Shown here: one piece after another, positions 3,801 to 28,706 of the stretch
Position numbering within the stretch: the stretch's first letter is position 1
Layout of the letters: each line of letters opens with the position of its first letter
Assembly: GCA_947502965.1 (NCBI GenBank)
Contig: CANNCG010000003.1
Span: 1-32,531, forward strand
Direction of reading: 5' to 3'
Source: a bacterium
Lineage (GTDB): Bacteria; Margulisbacteria; Marinamargulisbacteria; SXXA01
Length of the DNA: 32,531 nt
Program-made: the position numbers and the translations under genes
The notes under the pieces: generated by a model
Database searches by the model: none
What the model was told of the DNA's origin: nothing
The model's input: only the letters and a program-made list of their open reading frames with translations

Positions 3801-6800
3801 TGGCCTTATCAAAGGTCATATCGAACATCGCCGTCGGAGCGGTATTCCCGAGACCTGTCCGACCTGCCCCGGTGACCACAAAGGGATTCGAGGTGGTCGG
3901 ATTGTCAATCCAGAGGGCATGCCCCGTACTGGCCGAATGCACCACATTGAGAGACGCAATGGCCTCCGTAGAGCCAATCCCAACCGACCCCGTTTGCAGC
4001 GCCGTCAGTATGGGGGATTGTGCGGCATTTCGCACCAGAAGTCCCATATCCCCCGTCGCATGTACCAAGAGACGCGTGATTTCCAGCTGTGCCTCTCCGC
4101 TTGCCGTCCAAAGCCCCACATTGGATGTGACAGTGACTATCAACGCATTGGGCGTAGCTAACACACCCACCAGAAATGGACCAACGTTTGCGTTTGCGGT
4201 GACAGTACTTCCCACATGCAGCGTCGCATCCGGTGTCGGCGACGTTCCCAAATCCATCAATGTAAACACACCCATTGTCCCTTGGGTGTCGCCATTGTTT
4301 TCCGCCAAAAATACCGCCGATGCCTTAAACCCATCTACCGCAAAGTCTTCATTGAGCGGCAACAATGTGGAGCTTTCTGACTCCAATTGACTCAAATCTA
4401 CCCGAACCCCTATCGCCGTCTCGTTACTAGTCACCACGCCATCCAAGACAACATGGGTCCCGATAAACAGACTGGATCGATTACCGGTTCTAGGCCCAAA
4501 GCCCATGGTCACTTTGTTCGCACTATAGCCCGAGGCAAATGCGGTGGTATTCAGAGATGCGCTAATGCCTAGCGAATACTTTGATTGATCGAACATGGTT
4601 GAGACCACGTGCACGTGATTCCCGGTCGTCGTGTCTTGCTCCCACCACATCCCATCATTTTTGGCAATAATGCCATCTGTGCCATACATCACCATATTCA
4701 TGGTAGGTGGCCTATCACTTCCATAATTATGGAACATGCGAAGCAGGGGCACATTACGCCTATCCTCTCCGTTTGTGTATTTATAATGCGGCACGATATG
4801 GTCGGCAACCATTACGTCATTGAGCAATACCAATCCACTGAGGCTCTGATTCGACAAAACACTGCTACTGCTAATGGGAGTCATATACACGCTTTGACCA
4901 ACTTTCAGATTTCCCGTCGTGATAGTGAGGACGTTTGCTAGACCATTTGTTAGACCAATATTTAATGTTGGCAAAAACATATCGTCCGTAGACATCAGCG
5001 CATTCACGCTCAGATACTTGTTATTCATACTCGCTATATGAAGATCATGTCTAAAAAGGGCATTCTGAGACACCCACAAAGCAAATGAGGTAGCCAGTCC
5101 TACAGGCTTTTGGGGAATAAACAGCGTGTTAAACGTCGCAACATCCGCGATCAAGCCCTCGCTAGTCCATTCTTTTTGTGTAGACACATGATCCTGAAAA
5201 TTCAACGTTACGCCAGACGTATTGTCAAACCGCAAGGTGTCCAACACTTCCAAATCAACACCTGAGGCTATGATGGTCATTGTGTTCAAAGTGGCAGATT
5301 GTCCCAACGGCAATACCAAGCGGTTAAACGTCGCAGACGTTGCGTTCACCGACACCGTGTTGATAACTGCATCCTTCCCCGTGATAACCCCAGAAACCGC
5401 CAGTGCCGTAGCCGGTGCCGTCGTCCCTATCCCAACATTGCCCCCCAGCAACACCAATGGGTTACGGGATGTGCTGATAGCGTCATGGCCCATAGTCACC
5501 GCGATGCCATAGGCAACGCCGTTGCTACCAAGTTGCAAATCACCCAAATCAACCCAAAGCCCAACCGCCTCTACAGGCGTCACCCCAGTACCAAACTGAC
5601 CCAAAATCCCATCCGCAGCAAAAGACATTTCATAGCCAATAAAAGGAACAAAAACCGACGAAATCGAGCCATTTTTTCCCAAATTCATCGACACCACACG
5701 TTGCGTATAGTTTTGCGTTAATTGCTCAGGAAGCGCGATGTTTTTCGCTATCGTCAGCGCATGGTCTGGCAACAAGGATCCAATCCCCAGATGACCCGCA
5801 CTGGTGATCGCCACAGACGTACCCAGCTGCAAGGCACCGGAAACAAGCTCCCCCAACCCCGCCTGGTTCGCAGAAGCCGTCCCGGCAACAGACCACGCCG
5901 CCGCATTGGGCAACTGCCCTATCGCAACGCCGAGATCACCCCCCGTCATGACCTGCGTTGTCCCTGCCATCAGGGCAAAGGCATCCGCATCGCTATAGCC
6001 TTTGACGGACAGTTTCGCAGAGGGAATCGGTTCCCCAACAGACAGATACCCAAGGCCATCAGACCCCATGGCGGTCCTGGAAGCCGTCTGTATCCATAGT
6101 GGGTTCGTTAAGGCGGAGACAACATGTAAATTGGCACCGGGCAAGAAAGAGGTTCCTAAATCCTCACCGGTATGAATCCCGACGTTTCCACTGGTCTGGA
6201 GCCCAGACCTAAAGATGGCCGCAATCTTCGTACCCACGACAGCGTCCCCATTGGGCAACGTCATAGTGGCCCTCAAAGACTGCATGTCGACATACACGCC
6301 CCCGGCAACCTCGCCAGGCGCCATACCCAAAGGGGTCCCATTCCCTACCAGCCCTACCCCTACCCCCGTAAATACCGCGCTACTTGGCGTGATACGCGGT
6401 CCCATTCCTGTCGAAATACGGGCTGCACGCACATCGCCCAACCCCGTTGTCACCCCATACCCCGTATAGAGCCCCAGCACCCCATTTCCAGAGGCAATCG
6501 TGGCATTGGCAGTCCCTACACGCAGCACTGAGTAGGTCACCCCTAACGACGACTCCCTGACGGTATATGTCATAAACGGTTGGTCTGACACACGCCTGTT
6601 TTCGTTATATCCCGCCACGCGATTGGCAACACCGAGAATCGCACTGCTCACATTGGCCATCACCCCTGTATTGGGATTTCGGAAGATCAGTGCCTGATCC
6701 GCAAAGGCATTCTGAGACGACACAAACAAGGTGGTATACGGCGTATAGGCCGACGGGTTTTGGGTCGCAACCGGAGCCATTTGCAAATAGGTCATCCCTA

Positions 6801-9800
6801 TAGCGCCCGTATGCGTCACCCTATTCGCACTGATAACGAGTGGCGAATTAACCGTCAAGGTTTCACCGGTAATCGCGGAAGAAATAGTCACCGTAGGCAC
6901 AGTCAAAGACCCCAAAAGCCCCGACCCAGACACCCCCAAAACTGTATTATCGGCAAACCCACTATGAGCACCCACAAAAACAACATTTGCCGTCCCGAGA
7001 ACCGAATGCAAGACCTTCGCGTCAAATTGATTTGCGTCTTGTACACTTTGAATATTAACCGTCGTATTGCCATCGATTTCCAGCGTGCTCAGTACTTCCA
7101 ATGACATAGGATTCCGATTGTTGATATTAAACGTGGTAATACGCGCGTCTCCCCCAAAAAAAGCATTGGTCGTAATCGCAGACAATGTCCATTCACCCCC
7201 GGAAGCGATGAGACTGTTTGCACGAATAGATCCATTAATATCCAAAGCCACGTTGGGCTGACTCACCCCCATCCCAACATTGCCCCCCAAGAAAGTGGCC
7301 GCATATCGGCCTGCACCCGCAGTCTTAGAAATACCCATATCGACATAAACCCCCATCACAGGATTGCCTGTGATGGCTACGATGTCTTTCAAATCCAAGA
7401 CCATTCCTCTGGCCAATTTCGAACCGGCACTCCCCTCAAATATAGCAGAAGCATCTGTACTCACTACCACCTCTATACCCGTCAGGTTATGGGTCCTCGT
7501 GCTATTCAAGGTCTGACGAATATCTTGCATAGGAAAATGAAGGGGCATGGCTGCCGACGTTGTGAATTGGCGCACCATCGTAAACTGTCCCAAAGGCGTT
7601 GTCGTCCCCAACATCACCTCACCCAAAGACGATACCAGCAACCCTGAATTGTCCGTATTGACAGACAAGGAAGACGATTGCAGTCCCCCAAAGGACGTCA
7701 TTGGCGCAGACAGCGTCCCCACTACCGACAACGCCTGACCAGGTTGCGACGTCCCGATGCCCACACCCGTATTGTTCACACTCAGAACAGAGGCCCCAGC
7801 CGCAGAAAAGAGCGTCATGGCCGCCCTATCTGTAGTCGCTGCAACCGACAATTGGGAATTCGGCGAAGCAGTTCCCATCCCCACAAATGCATTGGACGAC
7901 ACAAATAGCGCATCCAGCCAAACAGAATCGACTTTTTTTTGCACCCATAACGGCGTGTGGGTCCTCCCAGCAACAATATGAAGCGAGGCACTAGGCACCA
8001 TATCACTATCTGAACCTGAAATAACCCCAACGTTCCCACTGCTTTCAGTTCCCACCAAAAAGGCAGCCGCAAAGGCAGACCCCGTCACCACCGTGCCATT
8101 GCTCAATGTGGTTTTCGTACGCAAATTATCCGATACCGTGACAGACAGACCCACGAACCGGTCATGCACATAACTAATCCCCGCCAAGGCAAGGTCCATC
8201 CCAAAAAAGCGTGCAGATCCTGGTGTTGATCTGTCTTTAAACCCCAATCGTATGGATTGCAGCGCCTTGCCTTCTGTGATGTTGAGGGACACAAGGCCTA
8301 TCACAGCAAAACGGCTGCCCTCTGAATAGGTAACCTCATTGCTGGTGGTGATACGCAACACGCCTACTGTGTTTTCTGTTGCCCATTTGATAAAGCTCAC
8401 ACCCGCCATTGACCCGTTGCCCTTAAAATAAGGCACTGTTTCGGGAAGAACCGACGATGTCACACTCAGGTTCCCTTGAACAGAGAACCCATTTTTTTTC
8501 ACCTCGTAAAAAAGTTCCTTGGTGATGGAATCAACAAACAAGTTGCCATTGTCAGACGAAATCGAAGTCACCCCAGACGGGAAGATCCGCAAATAAGGGG
8601 TCCGCAAACGGTCAAGCACCAGAAGAGAGGTCACATTGGTCGTAATAGAAAACGTCACGTTTGTACCCGCCATGGCATTCACAAACATAGAGGCCGTTGG
8701 CAAAGTCATCGCCGTGGAAAAAACGGACCCCTTGACATGCAGCGACGCGGTTGGGAGCGTCGTACCAATCCCTACCCACCCGGCATCGGTAATCCGCAAG
8801 CGTTCTTGGGGATAGGCCTCGCCTCCTTCAGGATCTGTCACAAAAGCCAATGCCGAGGCCGCATCTGTACCGGAAGCGAACGTTTTTACCCCCAAAACAC
8901 CAGCGCCAGACGGACCGGACTCATCAAAGTTAGAGAGAAGTACCAGCCCTACCGCATGGCCAGGAGTCGCAACCGACGCCTGTAAAATCAAGGGATTCCA
9001 GGTCCTATAGTCAGAGGCCACCGCCACTGCATCTGTATTAGTGAGTCGATAGGACTCCGTTTTCATATGTACACTTGAGGCGGGAGACGCGGTCCCAAAC
9101 CCTGCACGCGAAGCCTCCGTGATCACGAAGGTCTGATCATTCACACCCAAACGAGCAACCTTAATTTCACCCGCAGTACTATTCAAAGAAGAGGCGGTGA
9201 AGGTCCCATAAACCCGCAAGGCTTCCGAAGACAATACCCCGCCCACAGCCATCTTGTTCACCGATACCGATTGCAGGCCCGCCGTCGACACGACAGTCAC
9301 CGCATTGAGCGTCGCCATCGCGTTGACAGAGACAAAGGACTGCGCAAAAAGTCTGTCCCCCACCACCAAACTCTGCTCAGGAATAGACAGGGTTCCCTGC
9401 AAACGCAAGTTGTCCTGGCGCAAGGTTGTCACATACAAATCCTGAAAATGTCCCCCTTGCGTCACCTTCACATTATTGGCCACATTGAGCATGCTAAATG
9501 ACGCGACTTCTTGCTCTGTTAAAAAACTGGCAGCAGGCGCATTTGTGGCATAAATTGTGCCCGCTACTTCCAACGGATACGCTGGCGTTGTGGTCCCAAT
9601 TCCCACATTACCCCCCATAAACACAGCCACCCTACGCGATGTATCTCTATTGGAAGACGCCGTAGCGGACAGCCCCACCACAACCCCGCCTGTGGGAACA
9701 TTCAAGCCTGACAAATCCACCTTGTACCCCGTACCCACCACACGCTTGATACCGTCCTTATCGCCCAATTGGTTGGTATAATTGTTCCCAGAGTTCGAAG

Positions 9801-12800
9801 ACAGCGCCACATACGTACCGATCAACGGCTTGGCCACATTGTTGTCTCCTACCTCCACATCAATAATCTGAAAGGAAAAATCTGACGAAGGCAGCGACTG
9901 AAATTGTTTCTGCAACATCCATTGCGCCGTAGGATTTGAAATACCCATTCCCACATAGCCATTGGTACCGATGGTGAGGGTACCGCCAGCGGACAACGTC
10001 TCTGCGCGCATCGGCGCAACCATCCCGATAGACTGTATATCCCCCTTAATATCCAAGGCCGTTTTAGGCGTTTCAGTTCCAATCCCAACGCGCCCTGGCG
10101 CATTGATATAGATCGCGTTTAAAACGTTAATCGTGCTAATCTTCAGTCCCTCTGAAATATTAAACGCCTGCGCCCGCAAGGTCCCATAAACTTCCAATAA
10201 GTTCCCAGAAACACCCAATTGCGCATTCGGAGTCCCCCCTATTCCAATATCTCCCCCCATAAAAATAGCCGGGTAACGATACCCAGGGTCCGTAAATTGC
10301 TGTAACGTCACATCGCTCACATCTACATGAAGACCCACCGCCCTGGCTTTACTGGAAAAATAGGTAGGACTATTCTTATAGGGCAGATTTTTCATGTGGA
10401 TATTTAACCCTGCGATTTCCATAGGCGGCGTAACGCCCTGCCAATCAGAGGGATTTGCAGGCCACGTTTGTATTAAAACATTGAGACTTGCCGCATCATG
10501 GCTACGCGAATTGGCCAACACCCCATCATGCGAGACCACACTCTGAACACGCACCATAGTACTGAGCTCACCAGCCCCAAAAGAAATATTATTGCTCGCT
10601 GAAAAGGAATCCGAATAACGACTATATTTCTCGACTTCTGTATTGGCGGTAACCCGCAAGATACCCGCCGCTGTCGGTGTCGCAGAGACCCAATACATAT
10701 TGGTCGGTGCAAAAATTGAGAAAGAAGGCACCCCGGCATCTACACGCCACATCCCCACGTAGCCCCCAGGACCCTCCCCAAGGGTAAACACCTTGGAGAT
10801 ATTGATCACACTGTCAGTGGTATCCAAAACCAATTCTTTATTGAAAACCATCAATTCCCCTATGCTGCCAGCCTGAATATCACTCAAATTTAGCTGCTGC
10901 GCATAATAATCCCCCTCAACAATAAAATTATCCATCACAATCGCTGGGGCATTGGCACTCGCAACAATATTGAGCGTCCCTATAATATCCAAGGAATATT
11001 GGGGTTGTGTTGTCCCTATACCCACATAGCTATACAAGGGGGGTATGGCTTGGGGATCAAAAATCGTGTCATAAAAAACATCGGTGGTGCGATTGTCTCG
11101 GTTGATGGGAATCCAATCAACGAGTTGATTGTCCACCAAAAATTTATTGGCATTAACCGAAGTAACCGCCACATGGGTCGTTGCTCCCAAATTTGCCGTG
11201 CCTATTTGCAATCGCCCCATGAGGGCATTCCCTCCCACACTCAATGCCGCTGTCAGGGGTCGGGTAATGGCAATACCAACACGGTTATTCAACACCGCAA
11301 AAGGAGACCCCTCCCCTATGGAAGCACTCCCACCCGGACCTATGCGAAAAACATCGGTCTGCGTACGCGAAACGCCAAAGGTGTAGCGATCGGTTCCATC
11401 CAGATCAAAGGTAATCACGGGACTGACGGAAGTCCCTACCAAGCTCTGCAAACTACTGCGATTGGAGATTTCTAGCAAACTGTTGGGAGAGCTGGTTCCA
11501 ATCCCGACATTGCCCACCGCAGCAATACGTCCATAAGCATTCACATTGGCCGAAGGGAAATAAATATTGGGCGTCGTATTGATATAAGACCATACCAAAA
11601 CAGAGGTACTGGCCGACAATTGTTGGCCATCGGGAAAGATAAAGGCCTCTGCAGAAATGGACCCTACAGAGTCCAAATAGCCATACGCAGGATCTGCAGA
11701 AGACACCACTGCCTGGCCATTGACAAGCAAATCAGGAAACTTACCAACGCCCACATTGCCAGAGGCCGAAACGACAAATGACGGCGACGACACAGGGTTT
11801 TCTGTTCCTACCGTGAGAAACAACGGAGCACCCAGAGAAGCACCATGAACAACAAACTGAGCATTGCCAGGCGCATTAAGCTGAAGGGTGTCCATCACCA
11901 CCAAGGCATTGCCCGTTGGCGTCGTGGTCTTGATCCCCAGCCCACCATGTTGCGTATACACCAACGCCTGAGCGGTCCCGCCCACCATATTCAGCACCAA
12001 GTTTTGGTTATGCAATGCCAATATCGCCCGAATCTGAGGCTCAAGATGGGCATAGGCAAACCCAGGAGGCAGCGACAAAACGGCATCATGGTTGAACGCC
12101 CCTGCCATTTCACCTGAAGGAAGAAGGTGACCCTGCGCTTTCAGTCCATCCACAATGGCCGCCGCCGAGGCCCAATCGCTGGGATCTGTTAAGATCTCCA
12201 AAAAGTGAACGGCACCCACAGGTTTTGGATATACGGTTAGCGCCACATTTTTGGTGGCAAGCTGGATAGACAACCCTGTTACACGCGTATTGATACCAAC
12301 ACCCCCGGAAGCCCGAATCAAAAATTGGTTTTGGGTAGCCGCCGCAAAGGCCCCACTGGCCGCATCTGCCCAAACAAAAGACCCATGATTATTGGCCGCA
12401 GCACCACGCCCCATCGCCACAGAAAAATCGCCGTAAGCCGCGTTTCCCTGCCCCCCCAAAACCGTGGCATAGGCCCCACCGAGGCTATGACTCGCCCCAC
12501 CAATGGCATGCGAAAAGTTGCCACTCACCAGATGATCATACCCAAAGGCCGTGGTCACAATCCCCAAATTGGCATCATCCCACTGGGTACCCTGATAGGT
12601 ATCCGTGCCACTCAAATACCCCACACGGAAAATGCCTTTGGCCGGATGATAGACCATACGGGTCCCAGCCCCTGTCGCCGATACGGTTGCCGTGATCGGG
12701 CTAATGCCTGGGTTAACCGCCTCAAATCTCCCCGTTAAAAGCAACCCCAAGTTACCACTGACATGCAAATTGGCCTGAGGATTGGCCAAGCCCACGCCAA

Positions 12801-14514
12801 ACCTGTCCTCTAAGGCAACAAAAAGGGGTGTATCACCTCCCAAAGAGGTCCCTTTTTCAACACGAAATACGCCATCTTGTTGCGCATTAACCCCCATGGT
12901 GTAGCGCTGTTGCGAAGTCGTATTATGCCCCGCTGTAAAGGTGATCGCTGGATTTTTTGTCGGCTCCGCGTCAAAACGGTTGGGGGCGGCAATCTCCAGA
13001 AGCGAGGTGGGGTCAGGACGACCTATCCCCACGTTGCCTTGCATGTAATACAAGCTGTTCTTACTATTACGCAGCCAGTACGTACTCTTCGAAAGGGTTA
13101 ACCGCAAAGGCACCCCGTTGATCAATAAATCTTGGGCATTCAGGGTTCCCATGACTTCCACTCTGTGGCCAGAAAGGGTGGTCCCAATCCCCAAGCTCCC
13201 GGTTGCAGAGATCTGCAACAGCGGAATATTTGCCGACGACGATGCCAAAAAAACAGGGCCGGTATCCCCCGATTTTCCAGCGACCTGCAAACGCGCAACA
13301 GGCGTCACACCCACCCCCAAACCAATCCCAGAATTGTGAATCAAGTCTGCCACAGAACCCATACTTGGCGGAGAAACAGGGCCAGCCCATCGGGCCACCC
13401 GATCCGCACGACCAGTGCCCAAAATCCCGGTCAAAGAACGCCATTCCTCCGTCCCAAACCCCGTGCTTAAATATCCCTGAAAATCTGAAAATGTGCCGAC
13501 AGAAGCCCAGCGAATCGTGCCGGTATTTCCCGAAGAGTTGGTATCCAGGCGAAGCCCCCCATTCACGTCCAGCTTTTCCTGCGGTGTGGCACGACCAATG
13601 CCCACCTGATGAGACAGAATATAGAGATTATAGGTAGGCTCTGTGGTCTTGACCCAAAAGTTTGATGCTGTAAGTGGATTGCCATTGCGGGTCAAATGGG
13701 TTGCATTCACAGTCGCTGCCACGTGAAGTGAAAAGCCCGTACTCGGAAACGCCGTCCGGATCCCCACCGGAAATTTGGTGGTATAAATATTGGCGGTAGT
13801 GACCGTACTCCTCAGCCAAGACATGCTATGGGAAAGTGGACGCCCATTCAAATACATATCTGTAAAATTTGCTATCCCCGCCACATCGACGGTATACCCA
13901 GGCGAAAACGTGCCTAACCCCAAACGCGCGCCACGCACCACCAACTTATTTTGCGTCACAACCAGCCCTGTTTGCACAGAAAATGTAGAGACGAAATTCC
14001 CAGACACGTCGGATGCCAAACCTGCTAAGCCCCGTTCCGCGATCCGCGCGTGCACCGCATAAGGCAGCGCTGTCATCGCAAAGGTCGCCGTTTGAGAAGG
14101 CAAAACCAACTGTAAAATGAGATTGGGAGACCGCAAGTTCGTGGGCATCAAAAGCCCGTTTTTCCCCAAAACAAAGGAAAACCCATTCTGTTTAAAAGAC
14201 AGATTACCCAAGCCCTCGGTATACACCACCGTTCCATTCGAAACCAAATTTACAGTGGCAGCAAAGACTTCTGTCCCATTTTGTCCCAAATAACGTCCCA
14301 ATGAAGACGAAAAAAACACATCTCGGACCGTAAACTGTACAGGGTTAGGGCGCCAAGCCTGCACCACCACAGAGGGACTCGTCGCGGTATCGATCACAAA
14401 AATAGAGGTATCAAATGATTGGGCAGGAACCACACCCGCCCCAAAGACACAGAAAACGGCACTGAAAAACAGCTTGGCGCAAAAGGCTGAGTTTAAATAC
14501 CGCTTGTTATCCAT
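847..14514 (-). CDS. Giant secreted repetitive fiber/adhesin-like protein (4555 aa): signal peptide, tail-fibre-like beta-helix repeats, distinct C-terminal domain ending in a predicted coiled coil
   Basis: Single uninterrupted 13.7-kb ORF; ATG at 14514 preceded by AAAGGA 7 nt upstream. N-terminus MDNKRYLNSAFCAKLFFSAVFCVFGAGVVPAQS looks like a signal peptide. More than 20 degenerate copies of (F/L)(M/L)GG-N-V-G-I-G-T-x-x-P-x-x-x-L-x-V (e.g. GNVGIGTTSPAAGLHV, GNVGIGTTAPATALAV, RVGIGTETPKTALDI). One segment, SHAIGGASHSLGG...GSFVWADAASGAFAAATQNQFLIRASGGVGINT, resembles phage tail-fibre / phi29 gp12-type repeats (from memory, not searched). Composition is T/S/G/V/A/N-rich with few charged residues. 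The C-terminal ~150 aa (ADYAEYLPKISAENLRPGDVV ... ELSVLETYLQTKYEERQAKIAVLRKR) ends in heptad-like sequence. Confidence 0.85.
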   Translation of the reverse strand: MDNKRYLNSAFCAKLFFSAVFCVFGAGVVPAQSFDTSIFVIDTATSPSVVVQAWRPNPVQFTVRDVFFSSSLGRYLGQNGTEVFAATVNLVSNGTVVYTEGLGNLSFKQNGFSFVLGKNGLLMPTNLRSPNLILQLVLPSQTATFAMTALPYAVHARIAERGLAGLASDVSGNFVSTFSVQTGLVVTQNKLVVRGARLGLGTFSPGYTVDVAGIANFTDMYLNGRPLSHSMSWLRSTVTTANIYTTKFPVGIRTAFPSTGFSLHVAATVNATHLTRNGNPLTASNFWVKTTEPTYNLYILSHQVGIGRATPQEKLDVNGGLRLDTNSSGNTGTIRWASVGTFSDFQGYLSTGFGTEEWRSLTGILGTGRADRVARWAGPVSPPSMGSVADLIHNSGIGLGVGVTPVARLQVAGKSGDTGPVFLASSSANIPLLQISATGSLGIGTTLSGHRVEVMGTLNAQDLLINGVPLRLTLSKSTYWLRNSKNSLYYMQGNVGIGRPDPTSLLEIAAPNRFDAEPTKNPAITFTAGHNTTSQQRYTMGVNAQQDGVFRVEKGTSLGGDTPLFVALEDRFGVGLANPQANLHVSGNLGLLLTGRFEAVNPGISPITATVSATGAGTRMVYHPAKGIFRVGYLSGTDTYQGTQWDDANLGIVTTAFGYDHLVSGNFSHAIGGASHSLGGAYATVLGGQGNAAYGDFSVAMGRGAAANNHGSFVWADAASGAFAAATQNQFLIRASGGVGINTRVTGLSIQLATKNVALTVYPKPVGAVHFLEILTDPSDWASAAAIVDGLKAQGHLLPSGEMAGAFNHDAVLSLPPGFAYAHLEPQIRAILALHNQNLVLNMVGGTAQALVYTQHGGLGIKTTTPTGNALVVMDTLQLNAPGNAQFVVHGASLGAPLFLTVGTENPVSSPSFVVSASGNVGVGKFPDLLVNGQAVVSSADPAYGYLDSVGSISAEAFIFPDGQQLSASTSVLVWSYINTTPNIYFPSANVNAYGRIAAVGNVGIGTSSPNSLLEISNRSSLQSLVGTSVSPVITFDLDGTDRYTFGVSRTQTDVFRIGPGGSASIGEGSPFAVLNNRVGIAITRPLTAALSVGGNALMGRLQIGTANLGATTHVAVTSVNANKFLVDNQLVDWIPINRDNRTTDVFYDTIFDPQAIPPLYSYVGIGTTQPQYSLDIIGTLNIVASANAPAIVMDNFIVEGDYYAQQLNLSDIQAGSIGELMVFNKELVLDTTDSVINISKVFTLGEGPGGYVGMWRVDAGVPSFSIFAPTNMYWVSATPTAAGILRVTANTEVEKYSRYSDSFSASNNISFGAGELSTMVRVQSVVSHDGVLANSRSHDAASLNVLIQTWPANPSDWQGVTPPMEIAGLNIHMKNLPYKNSPTYFSSKARAVGLHVDVSDVTLQQFTDPGYRYPAIFMGGDIGIGGTPNAQLGVSGNLLEVYGTLRAQAFNISEGLKISTINVLNAIYINAPGRVGIGTETPKTALDIKGDIQSIGMVAPMRAETLSAGGTLTIGTNGYVGMGISNPTAQWMLQKQFQSLPSSDFSFQIIDVEVGDNNVAKPLIGTYVALSSNSGNNYTNQLGDKDGIKRVVGTGYKVDLSGLNVPTGGVVVGLSATASSNRDTSRRVAVFMGGNVGIGTTTPAYPLEVAGTIYATNAPAASFLTEQEVASFSMLNVANNVKVTQGGHFQDLYVTTLRQDNLRLQGTLSIPEQSLVVGDRLFAQSFVSVNAMATLNAVTVVSTAGLQSVSVNKMAVGGVLSSEALRVYGTFTASSLNSTAGEIKVARLGVNDQTFVITEASRAGFGTASPASSVHMKTESYRLTNTDAVAVASDYRTWNPLILQASVATPGHAVGLVLLSNFDESGPSGAGVLGVKTFASGTDAASALAFVTDPEGGEAYPQERLRITDAGWVGIGTTLPTASLHVKGSVFSTAMTLPTASMFVNAMAGTNVTFSITTNVTSLLVLDRLRTPYLRIFPSGVTSISSDNGNLFVDSITKELFYEVKKNGFSVQGNLSVTSSVLPETVPYFKGNGSMAGVSFIKWATENTVGVLRITTSNEVTYSEGSRFAVIGLVSLNITEGKALQSIRLGFKDRSTPGSARFFGMDLALAGISYVHDRFVGLSVTVSDNLRTKTTLSNGTVVTGSAFAAAFLVGTESSGNVGVISGSDSDMVPSASLHIVAGRTHTPLWVQKKVDSVWLDALFVSSNAFVGMGTASPNSQLSVAATTDRAAMTLFSAAGASVLSVNNTGVGIGTSQPGQALSVVGTLSAPMTSFGGLQSSSLSVNTDNSGLLVSSLGEVMLGTTTPLGQFTMVRQFTTSAAMPLHFPMQDIRQTLNSTRTHNLTGIEVVVSTDASAIFEGSAGSKLARGMVLDLKDIVAITGNPVMGVYVDMGISKTAGAGRYAATFLGGNVGMGVSQPNVALDINGSIRANSLIASGGEWTLSAITTNAFFGGDARITTFNINNRNPMSLEVLSTLEIDGNTTVNIQSVQDANQFDAKVLHSVLGTANVVFVGAHSGFADNTVLGVSGSGLLGSLTVPTVTISSAITGETLTVNSPLVISANRVTHTGAIGMTYLQMAPVATQNPSAYTPYTTLFVSSQNAFADQALIFRNPNTGVMANVSSAILGVANRVAGYNENRRVSDQPFMTYTVRESSLGVTYSVLRVGTANATIASGNGVLGLYTGYGVTTGLGDVRAARISTGMGPRITPSSAVFTGVGVGLVGNGTPLGMAPGEVAGGVYVDMQSLRATMTLPNGDAVVGTKIAAIFRSGLQTSGNVGIHTGEDLGTSFLPGANLHVVSALTNPLWIQTASRTAMGSDGLGYLSVGEPIPSAKLSVKGYSDADAFALMAGTTQVMTGGDLGVAIGQLPNAAAWSVAGTASANQAGLGELVSGALQLGTSVAITSAGHLGIGSLLPDHALTIAKNIALPEQLTQNYTQRVVSMNLGKNGSISSVFVPFIGYEMSFAADGILGQFGTGVTPVEAVGLWVDLGDLQLGSNGVAYGIAVTMGHDAISTSRNPLVLLGGNVGIGTTAPATALAVSGVITGKDAVINTVSVNATSATFNRLVLPLGQSATLNTMTIIASGVDLEVLDTLRFDNTSGVTLNFQDHVSTQKEWTSEGLIADVATFNTLFIPQKPVGLATSFALWVSQNALFRHDLHIASMNNKYLSVNALMSTDDMFLPTLNIGLTNGLANVLTITTGNLKVGQSVYMTPISSSSVLSNQSLSGLVLLNDVMVADHIVPHYKYTNGEDRRNVPLLRMFHNYGSDRPPTMNMVMYGTDGIIAKNDGMWWEQDTTTGNHVHVVSTMFDQSKYSLGISASLNTTAFASGYSANKVTMGFGPRTGNRSSLFIGTHVVLDGVVTSNETAIGVRVDLSQLESESSTLLPLNEDFAVDGFKASAVFLAENNGDTQGTMGVFTLMDLGTSPTPDATLHVGSTVTANANVGPFLVGVLATPNALIVTVTSNVGLWTASGEAQLEITRLLVHATGDMGLLVRNAAQSPILTALQTGSVGIGSTEAIASLNVVHSASTGHALWIDNPTTSNPFVVTGAGRTGLGNTAPTAMFDMTFDKAKFTFPVDVVWTVSSQIDEGGGRWRYSLLGTYQIGGVSYTYGVIPRTNNTDVTSALKPVGSVWNGSTEIVDFISTNTTQTTGGAGPLRVAAANGVSLVVGQEGKLGIWRRSPTESYMAMAVSGSMTAGDDTTWTNVPKWLDNPPYPVIYPQLHGYAVRQSGDFSFVGHYRESAAVSADGVVMWGKDAGDVLLVKDVNQTELLRFGKTRVGVVSSDPQATLSIGATDISQYPFRVSTLVSPNAMTMDTAGKVGLGTLVPSQDLHVIGDFNISTGNPLTAGFVNSNYMALKSLSLGVLYATPPEFKETLPIHNVVMTLAAYSKDTHVTGLGYRLTSENAYTMAALANPNSQAVKVNGLVVDVTGLAIEEYATNKFGYKAAAVFMGGPMVIGHATVDDVAVISTANIAFQAYGMDRDGRRIATGNILKIKTTSPAGSGREMVLNYLGNEAVHHEVTPLAFTAIQGTDDTASAVMADALIEAGDMVKTTKGAYARSSGNIATANVNVKAILEQAKTKASVVFHVARGGNQDSFLYLMSGHNASTVTTSMVSAVGVGHVGIGFPMGNAHLAAIDRPFVVSGDVQLGVKTTSFFTSPAGWGAKAYFSGGRIYSPDGNSDNTHEYFMGRYNRSNAISELRINIGETSTTSPNPSSKLIVDTYPKKSSFVAANLVNWGEGTSLKTGFTVSVFGYVNPNDTTVLTELPIRAGVGIGTTSPAAGLHVVRRSEAEGGPSMTGIDPRTPFSHTVLIVSKGSSQNMALVNYGTATDANFMTFIHKDTTKVRTLGYKPTVLGSIEMDGFGGVQFASPEADYAEYLPKISAENLRPGDVVGVFNGQVSRATAGARSVRVISSRPIVAGNFPGLEQLNAFGLVAFMGQVPVRVRGVVRAGDYLIASGFQDGTAVAITASLVVNPAQIIGQAWTATDAAGESTVNAIVGMSFANKHIGARLGEVVSLRAEVAGIKTELSVLETYLQTKYEERQAKIAVLRKR

Positions 14515-14523
14515 GCTAATCCT

Positions 14524-15459
14524 TTAAAAGGCGAACCCCATGGACAGGTAATGTTTACCATTAAATTCTGGATGTTCACTTTTTTCCATCGCATAGTCCG
14601 CCGAGATCGAACCCAGTGTCAAGCCGATACCCAAGCTCACACCCCCCTTGACATTTTTCAAAACCAGAAACTCTTTATACCCACCAGACACCGTGATGTA
14701 AGGGAGAAAAGTAGGCGTATAAACAGCAGCAACGCTGTTGATCATTCTTTTGCTTTCCCCTACGATTTTGAACTGCCCCAACAGCTGGACATCCGGCATA
14801 AACAGGTAGCGAATCCCATACACCGTCTGGAGAGATAGGGTTTCGCTTCCCCCATTGGAGTATTTCACCTTGAGACCAGAAGCCACATTGCGCAAGACAA
14901 TAGAAGTCGCAAAGGTAGGGGTATCGTACAGCATCCCCGCGTCAAAATTGACACCGGAGCCTGTGTAGTCGTGAATTTTTGTAAAGTAATAACTCCCACT
15001 AAGACCAAGGTGAAGGTTCTCCGTTTGGGAAAAGCCATAGCTCAACTTCACCACACCATTCATATAGTCAAAATACGCCCCTGTCTCCAGAAAGATCGCG
15101 GTATCCCTATCTGAGGTAATGTCTTGCGTGGTCACCGCGATCCCACGCACCTCCGTCAGCATAATCCCTGCACCAAACACCCCATAGGGTGTCTTAATAG
15201 TTCCCGCCACATTTTTAAATTCAACCTCTTGCATCAGCTGGGAGTAGAAGAAGTTCAGGTGCCGCTCAGACGGAATCCCCACAATCCCTGCGGGATTGTC
15301 GAAGATACTGCTGGACAGCTTGCTAAACCCCTCGATATTGGCCATCCGAATCATCCGCGCCGAAGACCCTACGTTGGTGCCTTGGAAAAATTCCGCCTGC
15401 GCCAAAAGAGGCACGCCCCAAAGACCTATTAAACACAAAAACAGAGCGACGCTTTTCAT
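14524..15459 (-). CDS. Outer-membrane beta-barrel protein, possibly PorP/SprF-family T9SS membrane protein
   Basis: 311 aa with signal peptide (MKSVALFLCLIGLWGVPLLAQA) and C-terminal ...SMGFAF (terminal aromatic residue typical of OM beta-barrels). N-terminal AQAEFF...SSIFDNPAGIVGI resembles the PorP/SprF N-terminal signature (QQDPQFSQY...INPAYAG, from memory). The stop overlaps the SD of the giant gene; the ATG overlaps the upstream stop (ATGA). Confidence 0.5.
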   Translation of the reverse strand: MKSVALFLCLIGLWGVPLLAQAEFFQGTNVGSSARMIRMANIEGFSKLSSSIFDNPAGIVGIPSERHLNFFYSQLMQEVEFKNVAGTIKTPYGVFGAGIMLTEVRGIAVTTQDITSDRDTAIFLETGAYFDYMNGVVKLSYGFSQTENLHLGLSGSYYFTKIHDYTGSGVNFDAGMLYDTPTFATSIVLRNVASGLKVKYSNGGSETLSLQTVYGIRYLFMPDVQLLGQFKIVGESKRMINSVAAVYTPTFLPYITVSGGYKEFLVLKNVKGGVSLGIGLTLGSISADYAMEKSEHPEFNGKHYLSMGFAF

Positions 15460-16118
15460 GGGATCACCGCAACCTTTCCTTTAGCCAACACCTTCCCATC
15501 GTGCATGAGGAGATAGAAATAAACCCCTGCAGACAAAAAATATCCAGAGAACGAGTCCAAATCAAGCTTGAGCTTGTTAAAGCCGACTTTACCGCCGTTT
15601 GTACCCGCTATAAACGTATTTTTAAAAATTCTATTGGCCATCATGTCATACATTTGCAATTCAATATCCATATTCTTTGACAATTGGTACCCAAGCATGG
15701 CCTCGTCCTGCTGACGTGCTGGATTGGGATAAAACAAAGCCTTCCCGATGACCTCGGCTGCAATACTGGCATCTCTTACCGCTTCTTGATCCACCATCAC
15801 CGCCACTTGCGCTGAAGACAGCGGTCCCGTATCCGTTGATTTGTACCCAAAACTTAAGACTTGCAAACTCCCTTTGGTATTCGAAGTATCCCCATTCATA
15901 TTTGTACCGCTATTTGTCGCCTTAAACGCATCGGGAACGTTGGTCCCGAAATGCAAGATCTGGTTCAAAAACATAGACTCCACCTCAAGAATGCTAGTGG
16001 CATAGACAGGCCCCGTCCACACACAGAGTCCCACGCAGCCCACCCACAGCAGGAAGAGCGACTTGGCTGTTGTCACAACACTGCGCCCAAGACGCCTGAT
16101 TCCACGCATTCTAGCCAT
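15456..16118 (-). CDS. Small secreted protein with a type-IX-secretion C-terminal sorting domain (Por_Secre_tail-like)
   Basis: N-terminal signal/TM segment SLFLLWVGCVGLCVWTGPVYA. C-terminal ~85 aa ALFYPNPARQQDEAM...QMYDMMANRIF...LSAGVYFYLLMHDGKVLAKGKVAVIP matches the T9SS type-A CTD pattern (YPNPA ... iydl.G ... aGvYfv ... Kl.k). Two adjacent ATGs at 16121/16118; the second has better spacing from a GAAGGGG SD-like stretch. Confidence 0.6.
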   Translation of the reverse strand: MARMRGIRRLGRSVVTTAKSLFLLWVGCVGLCVWTGPVYATSILEVESMFLNQILHFGTNVPDAFKATNSGTNMNGDTSNTKGSLQVLSFGYKSTDTGPLSSAQVAVMVDQEAVRDASIAAEVIGKALFYPNPARQQDEAMLGYQLSKNMDIELQMYDMMANRIFKNTFIAGTNGGKVGFNKLKLDLDSFSGYFLSAGVYFYLLMHDGKVLAKGKVAVIP

Positions 16119-16197
16119 CATGCCCCTTCATATCGGACGAAAAGAGGCAAAACTTGCATGCGACTATACCCGTTCCAAAATAGAATCGGGATTCTGC

Positions 16198-16233
16198 GAC
16201 TAAGCTACGCAGGGTACCCTGCGTAGCTTAGTC
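16198..16233. promoter_or_regulatory. Perfect 36-bp palindrome (gactaagctacgcagggtaccctgcgtagcttagtc) in the divergent intergenic region; candidate operator or bidirectional regulatory hairpin
   Basis: Exact self-complementarity over 36 bp (17-bp arms around a GTAC centre). Preceded by a small hairpin agaat-cggg-attct (16182..16195). Followed by TTGACA (16248..16253), 18-bp spacer, TACGGT, which would put a transcription start next to the ATG at 16286. Confidence 0.5.
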
Positions 16234-16285
16234 CCCACATCCATTTCTTGACACCTTTGTCCAGCCCAGGGTACGGTAATAAACC

Positions 16286-16744
16286 ATGACAAAAGCAGGC
16301 GCCAACTTCATCCAGCCACTCAAAAACATTGAGGTCAAAGTCAGTTTTCAAAAAACACGATTCAAGGCTATTTGCCCCACATTTCCAGAATGCAAGGGCT
16401 TTGGAAAGAGTAAAGATGAGGCCATAAAAAAACTCTGCAAATCCATTTCAAAATTCATCAGCCAGGTCGCAGGGAGTTTGATAGAAAACGTCATTCGCGA
16501 GGCCACGAAGCCCACACCCATCCCCGAACCCGCCCAACTAAAACGGTCGTCACGCAACACAAAAAACACCTCAACATCCACGCCGCTTCTGAGCTACCCC
16601 GAAGACCAAATGATGTTTCGGGTCACCCCAGAGCAAGATATTCACACCCTGATGCACAGACTTCAGGGTGGTATGGATGAGGCAATCCCCATCCATTCTG
16701 AGATAGAAGGCTTCTACATGGGGTTTCCGTTGAGCCTCAACTAA
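16286..16744 (+). CDS. HicB-like (UPF0150) domain protein with C-terminal extension
   Basis: 152 aa. N-terminal region FKAICPTFPECKGFGKSKDEAIKKLCKSI matches the HicB/UPF0150 motif (a.vPdlPGc.a.G.T.eEA...ai). No cognate HicA seen. Ends 5 nt before thrS. Confidence 0.45.
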   Translation: MTKAGANFIQPLKNIEVKVSFQKTRFKAICPTFPECKGFGKSKDEAIKKLCKSISKFISQVAGSLIENVIREATKPTPIPEPAQLKRSSRNTKNTSTSTPLLSYPEDQMMFRVTPEQDIHTLMHRLQGGMDEAIPIHSEIEGFYMGFPLSLN

Positions 16745-18479: not shown

Positions 18480-19106
18480 ATGGACACACACGGGCCCACG
18501 GCCCCTTGGAGCCCGAACCTCCAAAACGACGTTAACGGGGCACCCCGCATCCAGATCGTCAGCGACATCGACTTTACGATTTGTCGGCCACAGAATATCC
18601 AATCGCCATTTTTGGCCAAATGTCTTGCCACCCAGCCCACGCAATGCCCCATCTTTCACGCATCGGGCACTTTCCCATGCCGCAACAACCGCTGCGATCC
18701 CCCCACAGAAAATGATTTTCACATGTCCATGAGCTGTCCCAAACGTGATGCTTTTTCAGAAGAGTTTTACACATGGCTTGCCACCTTGGATTTTGAGCAC
18801 GACCACCCCATAGCCCCCAGCTTGCAATTTATTCAGCAACACCCCAGCATCCCGATTTTCCTCACCAACAGGGACGAGCAATGTAGAACAGGTACACTGT
18901 CTTTTTTCAAAAAACACCGCATCGACCATCACGAACTCCACATGCGCGCCCACCGGGATTATCGCCCCTTATGGGACTTCAAACTGGAAAAAATCGCCGA
19001 ACTCAAGGAGCATCATCCCCATATCCTGTGGATCGATGACCAGAACCCCCCGGTGATGTTTGAAAATGTGGTGTGGGTGCATCCCGCGACGTTACAGGAG
19101 ATTTAG
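18480..19106 (+). CDS. HAD-superfamily hydrolase/phosphatase-like protein
   Basis: 208 aa. Motif I: IVSDIDFTI (DxDxT). Motif IV-like: ILWIDDQ. Size and motifs recall 5'(3')-nucleotidase or polynucleotide-phosphatase-type HAD enzymes. Confidence 0.55.
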   Translation: MDTHGPTAPWSPNLQNDVNGAPRIQIVSDIDFTICRPQNIQSPFLAKCLATQPTQCPIFHASGTFPCRNNRCDPPTENDFHMSMSCPKRDAFSEEFYTWLATLDFEHDHPIAPSLQFIQQHPSIPIFLTNRDEQCRTGTLSFFKKHRIDHHELHMRAHRDYRPLWDFKLEKIAELKEHHPHILWIDDQNPPVMFENVVWVHPATLQEI

Positions 19107-20185
19107 CGCCCCGAATCTCCCAGTCTATAGCCCTTCACCCACTGTTTGATATTTTGGGTATTCTTAAAGGCCAGCAGGTCCCTCTGAAGACTTTCTACAT
19201 GCGTTTCGAGTTCGTCGATTTCGGTTTGAAAACGGCGCCGAACATACTCAGGCGATAGCCGCTGATAGGGCGACATGTGAAATTTTTCTCTGAAAAAAAA
19301 TTCTCTATTTGCGATTTCGTTTTGGAGTTCCAAACATTGGTCTTTCAAAATTTGATTGAAATGCTTCAGGCGGGCATCGGACATAGTTTCGAGGGTGTCA
19401 CGATCCAATTGGGCAATCTCCAACTGTAGCTCCAAAAGGGTGAGTAACTCTCGCTTCTTGTAGGCCTCATTGACCTGTTGCATGAGCAGGGTTTTGCGGT
19501 CTCGTTCTACAGGATCTTGCTCGGTATCGGGGTGGAGCTCTTTGGCCAATTGGCGATACACGTCCCGTATCGATTGACTGATTTGCTTTTCAGCCGCTTT
19601 GTCTTTGGCTTCTTTGGCTAGCGCTTTGGCGGACTTTTCTGCTGGGGCCTCCCTTTCTTCTCCAGCCTCGGGGTCCGCCGCCATACTGGCATGTATCTGA
19701 CGTAGCCAGTCCTCGGTGTCATCGTTTATATCGGGATTTAACTCTGCCCCAAAAAGATCGGAGATCATGCCCTTGAAATTTGCTTTTTCTTCGAGACATT
19801 CGGCATCATAGTCGGCGTTGTTGTATTTGTTATACAACGCTTTGACGGTCTCTGTTTCCTCAGTCGCCAGTATGTCGGCCGCCATAGAGCCAATAATTTC
19901 CTCGAACTTTCGCTTGTCCGTTTTGGAAAAAATACTGTCCAAATAGACACTGTCAAAACGCAAAATAATCGCAGTTTTCAAGACATTGTAGGTACGGCCC
20001 AAAGGGATAAGGACCTGGGTTAGCGTATCATGGTAGGTTGCCAACCATTTTTCCCAAGCGGCCAAGGCCTGTCGCTTTTGATCCACTTCTCGGATCCTTT
20101 TTTGAAATATTTGTTGTGCTTTGGTAAGGGTGTTTGTGTCCATACTCGCCAAGACATGGACCATTTCAGAAGAGATATTTGTCAT
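19103..20185 (-). CDS. J-domain-containing protein (DnaJ-like co-chaperone domain, otherwise uncharacterized)
   Basis: 360 aa. AGGAG SD 8 nt upstream of ATG 20185. Central VYRQLAKELHPDTEQDPVERDRKTLLMQQVNEAYKK carries the J-domain HPD motif and flanking helices. The rest is charged, coiled-coil-like. Confidence 0.6.
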   Translation of the reverse strand: MTNISSEMVHVLASMDTNTLTKAQQIFQKRIREVDQKRQALAAWEKWLATYHDTLTQVLIPLGRTYNVLKTAIILRFDSVYLDSIFSKTDKRKFEEIIGSMAADILATEETETVKALYNKYNNADYDAECLEEKANFKGMISDLFGAELNPDINDDTEDWLRQIHASMAADPEAGEEREAPAEKSAKALAKEAKDKAAEKQISQSIRDVYRQLAKELHPDTEQDPVERDRKTLLMQQVNEAYKKRELLTLLELQLEIAQLDRDTLETMSDARLKHFNQILKDQCLELQNEIANREFFFREKFHMSPYQRLSPEYVRRRFQTEIDELETHVESLQRDLLAFKNTQNIKQWVKGYRLGDSGR

Positions 20186-27537: not shown

Positions 27538-27547
27538 GGCGAGGTTC

Positions 27548-28339: not shown

Positions 28340-28706
28340 AGAGCGTGGTGACAATATCCCCGATGGCGGTGATGACCATGGGGTTTTCCCCGATAGGGCG
28401 TTCCATGGCGATGTCCAGTGCTGGAAAGGCCTCTGCAACCGCAGCGATCTGTGTGGGAATATCGTGATCCACATGTCCCCCACTGGCCATAAACAGGGGC
28501 AAAACCCGTACACGAAACGGCATATCGATGTGGTCGGTCCATGCGCTCACCACGTCCATTAACGTGGGTGAGGCAATTTCCATGTAGCAGAGATGCATGT
28601 CTTGGTCCGGATTTTGGGCTTGCAGTGTGGCAGTCAAGTGTTTAAATACGTCACACCACTTGGGATCACGACTGCCATGACAGATCAACGCAACTACGGT
28701 TCTCAT
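28326..28706 (-). CDS. cbiX: Small CbiX-type sirohydrochlorin chelatase-like protein
   Basis: MRTVVALICHGSRDP ... VRVLPLFMASGGHVDHDIP matches the short CbiX pattern (HGSRdp ... PlfL..G.H...DIP). ATGA overlap with the upstream SPFH gene stop. Confidence 0.65.
   Translation of the reverse strand: MRTVVALICHGSRDPKWCDVFKHLTATLQAQNPDQDMHLCYMEIASPTLMDVVSAWTDHIDMPFRVRVLPLFMASGGHVDHDIPTQIAAVAEAFPALDIAMERPIGENPMVITAIGDIVTTLCENG

Follow-up and report, generated by a model that had tools for sequence, protein, structure and literature searches.

A conserved three-gene cassette of Candidatus Margulisiibacteriota encodes a predicted PorV/PorQ-like barrel, a small type-A-CTD-like protein and a giant fibre-like protein

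The T9SS, and with it the recognition pair formed by the T9SS C-terminal domain (CTD) and PorV, is usually taken as a hallmark of Bacteroidota and the wider FCB group. The CTDs of PorZ and PorU are the two that stay bound to outer-membrane barrels, PorQ and PorV, respectively. Binding of CTDs to the loops of PorV and the functional importance of a conserved lysine are both established (PMC10994853), CTD lengths are 105 aa in PorU, 89 aa in PorZ and 65 aa in RgpB, and T9SS genes are reported to be absent from phyla outside FCB (PMC11285876). In Flavobacterium pairs of the SprB-SprF type, the barrel binds the CTD and retains the protein on the cell surface (PMC11205867). A different type of surface protein is represented by the MAT fibres of Bdellovibrio bacteriovorus, which are described as chromosomally encoded, Sec-signal-bearing, phage-tail-fibre-like trimers. 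Their signal peptide is followed immediately by a conserved β-rich domain, and 13 of the 21 members end in an intramolecular chaperone that is autoproteolytic (PMC10769870). The locus presented here, in which a candidate barrel and CTD pair is wired to a giant fibre-like protein, belongs to Candidatus Margulisiibacteriota, a phylum near Cyanobacteria that is not known for type IX secretion. A preliminary description of the same DNA had assigned it to another T9SS-bearing lineage of the FCB group, to which this host does not belong.

The window (the whole 32,531-nucleotide stretch of DNA analysed) contains the following features.

16122-16285, no strand: divergent intergenic region upstream of the cassette, presumed promoter site
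15456-16121, minus strand: gene of the small CTD protein, 221 aa, or 220 aa if called from the second Met
15996-16121, minus strand: signal peptide of the small protein, approximately residues 1-42, read from sequence, with likely cleavage after VYA
15459-15749, minus strand: type-A-CTD-like β-sandwich of seven strands, residues ~125-221, with YPNP, GVYFY and KGK motifs
14524-15459, minus strand: barrel gene, 311 aa
14515-14523, minus strand: barrel/giant junction, TAA-AGGATTAGC-ATG, which holds the Shine-Dalgarno sequence of the giant gene
847-14514, minus strand: giant gene, 4555 aa, ATG at 14514
850-3207, minus strand: block of conserved sequence at the C-terminal end of the giant, covering residues ~3770-4555 and ending in a coiled-coil-like tail
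1255-1416, minus strand: Peptidase_G2-type intramolecular-chaperone-like segment of the giant, residues ~4367-4420
247-840, minus strand: DUF218/ElyC-like gene, a lineage-specific neighbour outside the conserved cassette

The positions of the two smaller minus-strand reading frames, 15456-16121 and 14524-15459, agree exactly with those given previously, as does the junction between them, where the stop codon of the 221-aa gene overlaps the barrel ATG (ATGA at 15456-15459). This 4-nt overlap is found in nearly all orthologous cassettes. Only AGGATTAGC lies between the barrel TAA (14524-14526) and the ATG of the giant gene, which leaves a gap of 9 nt containing AGGA; coupling of barrel and giant is thus as tight as had been proposed, although the Shine-Dalgarno core abuts the barrel stop and does not overlap it. 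The corresponding gap in other cassettes measures 11-37 nt. Signal-peptide-like N-termini can be read from the sequences of all three cassette proteins. The intergenic region upstream comprises a palindrome with 27-nt arms at 16189-16242, and no consensus sigma-70 site was found within 16122-16285. The DUF218 gene reported downstream of the giant is indeed present, starting 6 nt past the giant’s stop (PF02698, 91.6 bits; ElyC model, 41.9 bits, sub-threshold), but it is not conserved beside other cassettes, where Rrf2 or an opposite-strand epimerase gene comes next, and was rejected as a fourth member. The four-gene arrangement proposed earlier is therefore reduced, in related loci, to a conserved unit of three genes.

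The window shares its set of three genes, for small CTD protein, barrel and giant, with five further metagenome/MAG places (L005/6, L007/8, L009, L010 and one JGI place, the last available as a gene list) and with 13 of the 22 loci from GTDB species representatives, the genome scan having been run with a 16-sequence alignment since the 46-sequence alignment was too divergent. Orthologues of the small protein lie upstream of every cassette barrel, while the cassette is flanked by different housekeeping genes each time. The giants encoded downstream of the barrel are homologous along their length in 14 of the 17 other cassettes with DNA sequence; the remaining three lie on contigs too short, or interrupted by gaps, to be scored. 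Because it is conserved in many genomes, the three-gene arrangement is more than chance, and the cassette constitutes a conserved, chromosomal unit of Candidatus Margulisiibacteriota. This lends support to the earlier view that the two small genes and the giant form one functional unit that has not been characterised. Genomes have several PorV-like paralogues each, among them a “solo” clade whose housekeeping context is fixed, and since the LpxB gene adjoins the solo paralogue the host is considered diderm. At L024, the cassette is adjoined by a second pair consisting of a barrel and an S8 subtilase with a CTD that exceeds the cut-offs of TIGR04183, CHU_C and FlgD_ig; pairing of a PorV-like barrel with a CTD protein thus recurs at least once more in the phylum.

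The 311-aa barrel is predicted to comprise a signal peptide, an N-terminal segment with an NPA motif and 14 β-strands in a FadL-type fold, with PorV as the best structural match. The only family models matched by the window barrel were those of PorV/PorQ (NF033709; 53.6 bits, E 2.4e-14, cut-off 90), PorQ (NF033711; 30.9 bits, cut-off 220) and PorV2 (21.9 bits, cut-off 325), all under their cut-offs, and NF033709 was matched by 43 of 46 barrel family members (best E 1.4e-18). In all, 5571 relatives of the barrel were identified. The previous assignment to PorP/SprF was not upheld, as TIGR03519 gave no match to the window barrel at E ≤ 1 and matched weakly in 3 of 46 barrel relatives (best E 1.6e-5). 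An NPA motif is common to FadL-fold barrels, and PorP/SprF proteins carry a similar one. The motif of the cassette barrel (“SSIFDNPAG”) has its counterpart in FadL, for which a “delta NPA” mutant structure exists (2r4o), and is therefore not PorP-specific. Family and fold comparisons thus indicate a PorV/PorQ-like barrel, related to T9SS components and not of the PorP/SprF type. Neither the barrel profile, the small-protein profile nor the C-terminal 500 aa of the giant matched any PDB sequence, and the links of the cassette proteins to PorV, PorU and PorZ therefore derive from fold comparison.

In the small protein, the signal peptide is followed by an N-terminal half that is modelled with low confidence and carries short conserved motifs, then by a helix (residues 103-119) and by the CTD at the C-terminus. 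In the AF2 model, which was predicted from an alignment of database orthologues (mean pLDDT 75.4), residues 5-35, in the signal peptide region, form a helix, residues 40-100 fall below 50 and the C-terminal domain, with seven strands within residues 129-220, is mostly above 90. The region YPNP...GVYFY...GKVLAKGKVAVIP matches the T9SS type A sorting domain described previously, at residues 131-218 of 221 for TIGR04183 (E 2e-4), although it lies below both curated cut-offs (21.2 bits against 23 for TIGR04183; 17.1 bits against 27 for PF18962). With the CTD score just under threshold and no PorP match, both assignments made at the outset are thus formally sub-threshold in the window proteins, an outcome that the preliminary description had itself named as refuting it. 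TIGR04183 matched all five orthologues scanned (best E 2.4e-6), five orthologues carry a precomputed PF18962 match, and the NCBI name of two (P0189 and P0197) is “T9SS type A sorting domain-containing protein”. A Foldseek search with the small protein placed the CTDs of PorZ (5m11) and PorU (6za2) at ranks 2-3, after the unrelated Ig-like RoxP, with similar scores for many generic Ig folds. The complete CTD motif set is present, with PNP close to the beginning, G-x-Y in one of the late strands and Lys close to the C-terminus, and the domain is placed at the extreme C-terminus. Pro-132, Asn-133, Pro-134, Gly-199, Tyr-201 and Lys-216 are invariant in 22 orthologues and Lys-214 is nearly so. With ~97 aa, this domain is near the PorU and PorZ CTDs in length and longer than that of RgpB. 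It is also the most conserved piece of the cassette, with a mean pairwise identity of 48% compared with 39% for the barrel and 21% for the N-terminal half of the small protein, as would fit a structural partner and not a disposable signal. The small protein is thus predicted to carry a T9SS-type C-terminal domain, sub-threshold by curated scores in the window protein. Its adjacency and translational coupling to the barrel are circumstantial evidence that the latter may bind a type-A CTD on its extracellular loops. The divergence of CTD and barrel is correlated (mirror-tree r of 0.82), but this was discarded as evidence of partnership, since shared ancestry alone predicts such a correlation.

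The giant protein (4555 aa) possesses a Sec signal, is rich in Gly, Ser, Thr, Ala and Val and contains 18 xGxGT-type motifs. Its C-terminal block displays 29-30% identity over ~790 aa to the giants of L005 and L009. Pfam returned nothing for the whole giant at E 0.01; when the giant was scanned in five pieces, a weak Peptidase_G2 match was obtained (PF11962; 20.1 bits, cut-off 25), and the C-terminal piece of the L024 giant, beyond a scaffold gap, scored 34.2 bits against the same cut-off. Matches to PHROG tail-fibre families are weak, with phrog_9942 at 2e-12. These features suggest a protein resembling phage tail fibres, whose trimerisation is probably assisted by an intramolecular chaperone of the Peptidase_G2 type at the C-terminus. 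No CTD of any type was found in the giant with Pfam or with the cassette CTD profile, and it is therefore not a conventional T9SS cargo.

Taken as a whole, the three-gene unit probably anchors or displays the fibre. On balance, we lean towards an arrangement in which the barrel holds the CTD of its partner and the resulting platform anchors or exports the giant. The barrel would insert in the outer membrane and keep the CTD permanently on its loops, as modelled on PorV with PorU and PorQ with PorZ in the T9SS attachment complex, while the small protein would contact the giant fibre as an adaptor through its N-terminal half, which is poorly structured and has short conserved motifs and a single helix. 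With the CTD kept by the barrel and the fibre engaged by the N-terminal half, the pair would thus serve as an outer-membrane anchor or export adaptor for a fibre that we infer to be exposed at the surface. The CTD may be supplied in trans because the fibre’s own C-terminus would be taken by the autochaperone. The way in which any cassette protein crosses the outer membrane would likewise be a matter of inference. To our knowledge, CTDs of the T9SS get to the PorV loops only via the SprA/Sov translocon, and this counts against export of the cassette proteins, both the CTD protein and a trimer of 4555-aa chains, without such a translocon. A cassette remnant, L027, in which the barrel is kept without a giant, also counts against the proposed arrangement, as do the sub-threshold scores of the window’s two smaller proteins with all curated models and the first rank of RoxP in the Foldseek search. 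A more far-reaching proposal, which we advance tentatively and with more doubt than conviction, is that PorV and CTD form, in Margulisiibacteriota, a docking module of the outer membrane that works on its own and needs neither the translocon nor the motor of the T9SS. In this module the sorting domain would be provided in trans through a small adaptor and would tether or export a giant trimeric fibre ending in an autochaperone. The type IX attachment machinery could have arisen from such a module, or the module could have escaped from it.

Other explanations were weighed against the arrangement just outlined. Margulisiibacteriota might instead have a complete, unreported T9SS (SprA/Sov, PorK/L/M/N, PorU and others), for which the small protein would be one type-A cargo among others. 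The barrel would then be a PorV paralogue specialised in carrying this cargo away from the translocon, perhaps along with the fibre. The several PorV-like paralogues per genome with their solo clade, the presence of at least one conventional-looking cargo in the S8 protease with its above-cut-off CTD and the labels given to orthologues by the NCBI pipeline all speak for this explanation, which we nevertheless judge unlikely: no T9SS core gene was found in the 32.5-kb window, among ~20 flank genes from four related loci (10-kb flanks) or in the precomputed Pfam lists of metagenome flanks, a small and weak sample, while the reported absence of T9SS genes outside the FCB phyla, a literature search in which no paper joining T9SS with Margulisbacteria was found and the unusually high conservation of the CTD, which suggests a permanent partner over a cleaved signal, all argue in the same direction. 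An arrangement in which a PorP/SprF-type barrel partners the giant as SprF partners SprB, in a T9SS-bearing FCB-group organism, is very improbable, being already contradicted by the HMM results and by the taxonomy of the host. The functional analogy remains a fair one in that a dedicated barrel is encoded beside a giant surface protein, and the weak TIGR03519 matches of three family members and the NPA motif are in favour of the SprF-type arrangement; that arrangement fails in that the barrel, with PorV as its best structural match and NF033709 matches in nearly the entire family, is not of the SprF type, and that the giant lacks a type-A or type-B (TIGR04131/CHU_C) CTD; the domain of the neighbouring small protein matches the type-A model.

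As a further alternative, the barrel might be a generic porin or a transporter of the FadL type, and the domain resembling a CTD no more than an Ig fold, both co-transcribed with the giant and having no role in its secretion or anchoring. This is distinctly less probable than a full secretion system, as the strict three-gene synteny and the 4-nt overlap are maintained between cassettes that share 30-45% identity and have unrelated neighbours, the sequence matches are specific to PorV/PorQ and TIGR04183 and not to FadL or unrelated Ig families, and a second pair of barrel and CTD-protease exists. The tail-fibre matches of the giant, weak as they are, and its phi29-type (Peptidase_G2) autochaperone signature would also suit a prophage or phage-derived remnant, with the giant as a phage tail fibre accompanied by accessory genes. 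To this we give almost no credence: other phage genes are absent and the flanks are housekeeping genes, no barrel relative was found among 2.9 million viral contigs, the C-terminal 500 aa of the fibre had no tblastn match in 50,697 phage records, all three proteins carry Sec signals and the cassette is vertically conserved across the phylum.

These observations may be read in two ways. Either the range of T9SS-like machinery is wider than thought, or docking of CTDs on PorV is an older, separable module able to work alone. The cassette also offers a testable answer to the question of how bacterial phage-tail-fibre-like giants attach to the outer membrane. In uncultured Margulisbacteria, some of whose marine lineages are abundant, it points to a structure that is likely to be a major one of the cell surface and relevant to attachment or cell-cell interaction.

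Among described systems, the BamG-BamH pair of the Bacteroidota BAM complex (PDB code 9n2d; PMC12611786) is one comparison, in which BamG, as part of BAM, binds the N-terminal tail of a lipoprotein; in contrast with the cassette, no CTD is involved and there is no sequence-level match. The MAT fibres, as far as the part of the account used here goes, resemble the giant as chromosomal, Sec-exported, tail-fibre-like proteins. The C-terminal chaperone of MAT is of the S74 type, whereas the signature of the putative one in the cassette giant is of the Peptidase_G2 type and weak; MAT fibres are much shorter, and that part of the account mentions no PorV-like barrel or CTD partner. SprB-SprF and the type-B CTD/PorP-SprF pairs of Flavobacterium share with the cassette a giant surface protein encoded beside a dedicated barrel. 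They differ in that the cassette barrel is PorV/PorQ-like, the CTD is type-A-like and located on a separate small protein instead of on the giant, the gene order is reversed and the giant resembles tail fibres, with a putative autochaperone, and not SprB. There is also a likeness to the PorV-PorU and PorQ-PorZ pairs of Porphyromonas gingivalis, in comparison with which the cassette host lies outside FCB and displays no translocon or motor genes in the regions seen, HMM scores stay below the curated cut-offs, and the partner is tiny (~175 aa when mature), lacking an enzymatic or propeller domain. In addition, the two genes of the cassette pair show translational coupling and keep a constant place upstream of the gene for a giant fibre. 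PorV as a carrier of type-A CTDs, as in the Flavobacterium johnsoniae SprA-PorV structures (PDB codes 6h3i and 8gl6), provides a further comparison for the cassette barrel. Like the P. gingivalis pairs, the cassette combines a predicted 14-strand, FadL-fold barrel of the PorV/PorQ family with a protein that bears a type-A-like, Ig-fold CTD, similarly long (~97 aa) to those of PorU and PorZ and with a conserved C-terminal lysine.

Four consecutive head-to-tail ORFs occupy the minus strand of the window:

15456-16121, minus strand: small protein of 221 aa with a T9SS-type C-terminal domain (CTD) (ORF call)
14524-15459, minus strand: barrel of 311 aa (ORF call)
847-14514, minus strand: giant fibre-like protein of 4555 aa (ORF call)
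247-840, minus strand: DUF218/ElyC-like envelope gene, 197 aa (ORF call and family match)

The small-protein and barrel ORFs overlap by four bases (ATGA, 15456-15459), AGGATTAGC and the giant ATG come immediately after the barrel TAA, leaving a gap of 9 nt, and 6 nt separate the giant stop from the start of the DUF218 gene. Since ORF positions, overlap and gaps were found as claimed, the coordinates and coupling reported in the preliminary description are correct, except that the Shine-Dalgarno core abuts the barrel stop codon instead of overlapping it. The arrangement is genuine and very unlikely to be due to chance. Signal-peptide-like N-termini were read from the sequences of the small protein, the barrel and the giant. 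An intergenic palindrome (16189-16242; core GACTAAGCTACGCAGGGTACCCTGCGTAGCTTAGTC) separates the small CTD gene from a divergent 152-aa ORF (16286-16744; family match absent or faint at most); its 27-nt arms are 85% complementary with no spacer between them, and it might serve as an operator or form an RNA hairpin. Elsewhere in the window, a 208-aa ORF (18480-19106) displays a weak HAD_PNKP match, a 360-aa ORF (19103-20185) a sub-threshold DnaJ match, and three ORFs of 316-398 aa (25560-28513) have no NCBIfam match.

A word-indexed search recovered only 22 relatives of the barrel, and an exhaustive profile search returned 310 clusters at E <= 1e-30 and 5571 at E <= 1e-3. The cassette of small CTD protein, barrel and giant genes was identified in 13 of 22 loci of GTDB species representatives and at five further metagenome/MAG places, one of which is represented by a list of genes and not by DNA. 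Two of the cassettes (loci L005 and L024) belong to a single MAG. The small CTD proteins comprise 163-282 aa, the barrels 300-335 aa and the giants, where complete, up to 4555 aa; the giant genes usually run off the contig. The 4-nt overlap of the first two genes is nearly always kept, and all upstream small proteins match a CTD profile (E between 1e-27 and 1e-52). Of the 17 other cassettes with DNA, 14 have a homologue of the window giant downstream of the barrel, and the remaining three lie on contigs too short or gap-interrupted for scoring. Cassette flanks are housekeeping genes, different each time. The DUF218 gene, previously counted as a fourth member, follows the giant in the window's lineage only, and unrelated genes follow the other cassettes. 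A cassette remnant was observed at L027 (9314-11262), where the CTD ORF upstream is cut short, covering only profile positions 1-63, and where a 175-aa ORF and then housekeeping genes come after the barrel in the place of the giant. Two large ORFs near family members, of 1468 aa (L010, 625-5031, minus strand) and at least 1350 aa (L026, 1-4053), have no Pfam or NCBIfam match.

The T9SS type A match of the small protein is located at its extreme C-terminus, as proposed initially, but falls just short of both curated thresholds (TIGR04183, 21.2 bits against a cut-off of 23, E 2e-4; PF18962, 17.1 bits against 27). Its AlphaFold2 model displays a signal helix, ~60 low-confidence residues, a helix (residues 103-119) and a confident seven-strand sandwich (~125-221), the CTD, which is the only folded domain. 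Among solved structures, Foldseek ranks the PorZ and PorU CTDs second and third, generic Ig folds scoring similarly; at ~97 aa the CTD is long, as both of these are. Sequence-only PDB searches with the small protein and the barrel gave no match. No part of the cassette is better conserved than the CTD, which has a mean pairwise identity of 48%, compared with 39% in the barrel and 21% in the remainder of the small protein. Two short, moderately conserved motifs, N-x-LLHFG and L-x-VL-x-x-GFK (22-sequence alignment), lie in the low-confidence N-half (residues ~50-100; window 15822-15974) and may fold only upon partner binding.

The giant starts with a signal peptide, is dominated in composition by G/S/T/A/V and contains 18 xGxGT-type motifs; a Pfam search revealed no domain at E 0.01. 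Its last ~790 residues, which the orthologues at L005 and L009 share, include a Peptidase_G2 intramolecular-chaperone signature that scores below the cut-off of 25 in the window (20.1) and above it (34.2) in the C-terminal piece of the L024 giant. At its very end is a coiled-coil-like tail. The giant carries no CTD, at variance with its implied role as cargo.

The barrel was initially assigned to the PorP/SprF family, members of which are often encoded beside their partner protein, on the basis of its N-terminal NPA motif (in SSIFDNPAG). This motif is common to FadL-fold barrels generally and is present in FadL itself, whose "delta NPA" mutant (2r4o) is among the fold matches, and thus it is not a PorP signature. 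The PorP/SprF model does not match the window barrel at all, whereas the PorV/PorQ family model NF033709 does (53.6 bits, E 2.4e-14, cut-off 90), as do PorQ (30.9 bits) and PorV2. Across 46 diverse relatives, PorV_fam is matched by 43, PorQ by 38 and PorP/SprF, weakly, by three. The AlphaFold2 model (pLDDT 81.5) has 14 long strands, and its nearest structure is PorV of the SprA-PorV translocon (8gl6_F and 6h3i_F, Foldseek ranks 1 and 2). A PorP/SprF-type barrel is unlikely, as is a generic FadL transporter. A "solo" clade of barrels at eight further loci (L017, L018, L020, L023, L025, L026, L029 and L030; barrel at about 10001-10900 in most) has neither CTD gene nor giant adjoining. Most of these loci have one fixed set of neighbours, with LpxB, def, dcd and RNase T upstream of the barrel and, on the opposite side and strand, FdhD and SpoIIE; this suggests a general, not cassette-specific, role for this clade. 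At L024 (6720-9201, minus strand), head to head with the cassette, a more distant PorV/PorQ-like barrel (312 aa) precedes an S8 subtilase whose C-terminal domain scores above the cut-offs of TIGR04183, CHU_C and FlgD_ig and resembles the PorU CTD (E 8.8e-10), therefore representing a second form of pairing between a CTD protein and its own PorV-like barrel in the host phylum.

The host belongs to Candidatus Margulisiibacteriota, outside the FCB group to which it had been attributed; the window spans almost all of contig CAXNJR010000002.1 (GCA_964202675.1). The window ThrRS has its best phylum-named matches there (64-67% identity), and barrel and small-protein relatives with phylum-level names all fall in Candidatus Margulisiibacteriota or Marinamargulisbacteria, with two exceptions, a protein labelled "Thermoproteota archaeon" (P0020) and a locus labelled "Actinomycetota" (L028), which are taken as mis-binned because both contain the same cassette. 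LpxB beside a barrel paralogue indicates a lipid-A-bearing outer membrane. The main alternative, an unrecognised full T9SS in which the small protein would be cargo and the barrel a PorV paralogue, is considered rather improbable: no T9SS core genes were found in the window, in ~20 flank genes of four related loci or in precomputed metagenome-flank Pfam lists, a 2024 paper describes T9SS genes as lacking in phyla outside FCB (PMC11285876), and a literature search found no paper naming T9SS together with Margulisbacteria. A prophage remnant, to which the giant's weak PHROG tail-fibre matches might point, is also unlikely; viral contigs contained no barrel relative and phage records no match to the C-terminal 500 aa of the fibre.

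PorU and PorZ retain their CTDs and stay bound to PorV and PorQ for good. By analogy, and in view of the conservation and length of the CTD and the absence of another folded domain from the small protein, we lean slightly towards a permanent outer-membrane platform, in which the CTD would dock onto the barrel and the flexible N-half of the small protein would contact the fibre, presumably at the cell surface, and tether it or help its export across the outer membrane. The fibre would be unable to bear a C-terminal CTD of its own because its C-terminus is a putative autochaperone. The earlier idea that a giant fibre has its own T9SS-related module survives in spirit, with barrel family, host lineage, DUF218 membership and the giant's role as cargo revised. 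Type-A CTDs bind extracellular loops of PorV, a conserved C-terminal lysine being important for this (PMC10994853). PorP/SprF barrels hold type-B CTD proteins (PMC11205867). What is new here is a PorV/CTD pair outside FCB whose CTD belongs to a small protein in its own right and which is coupled to a giant fibre of putative autochaperone type. The closest described analogues of the giant are the Bdellovibrio MAT fibres, which are trimeric and combine a Sec signal with a conserved beta-rich domain at the N-terminus and a C-terminal autochaperone; the latter is of the S74 type in contrast to the Peptidase_G2 signature of the giant (PMC10769870).
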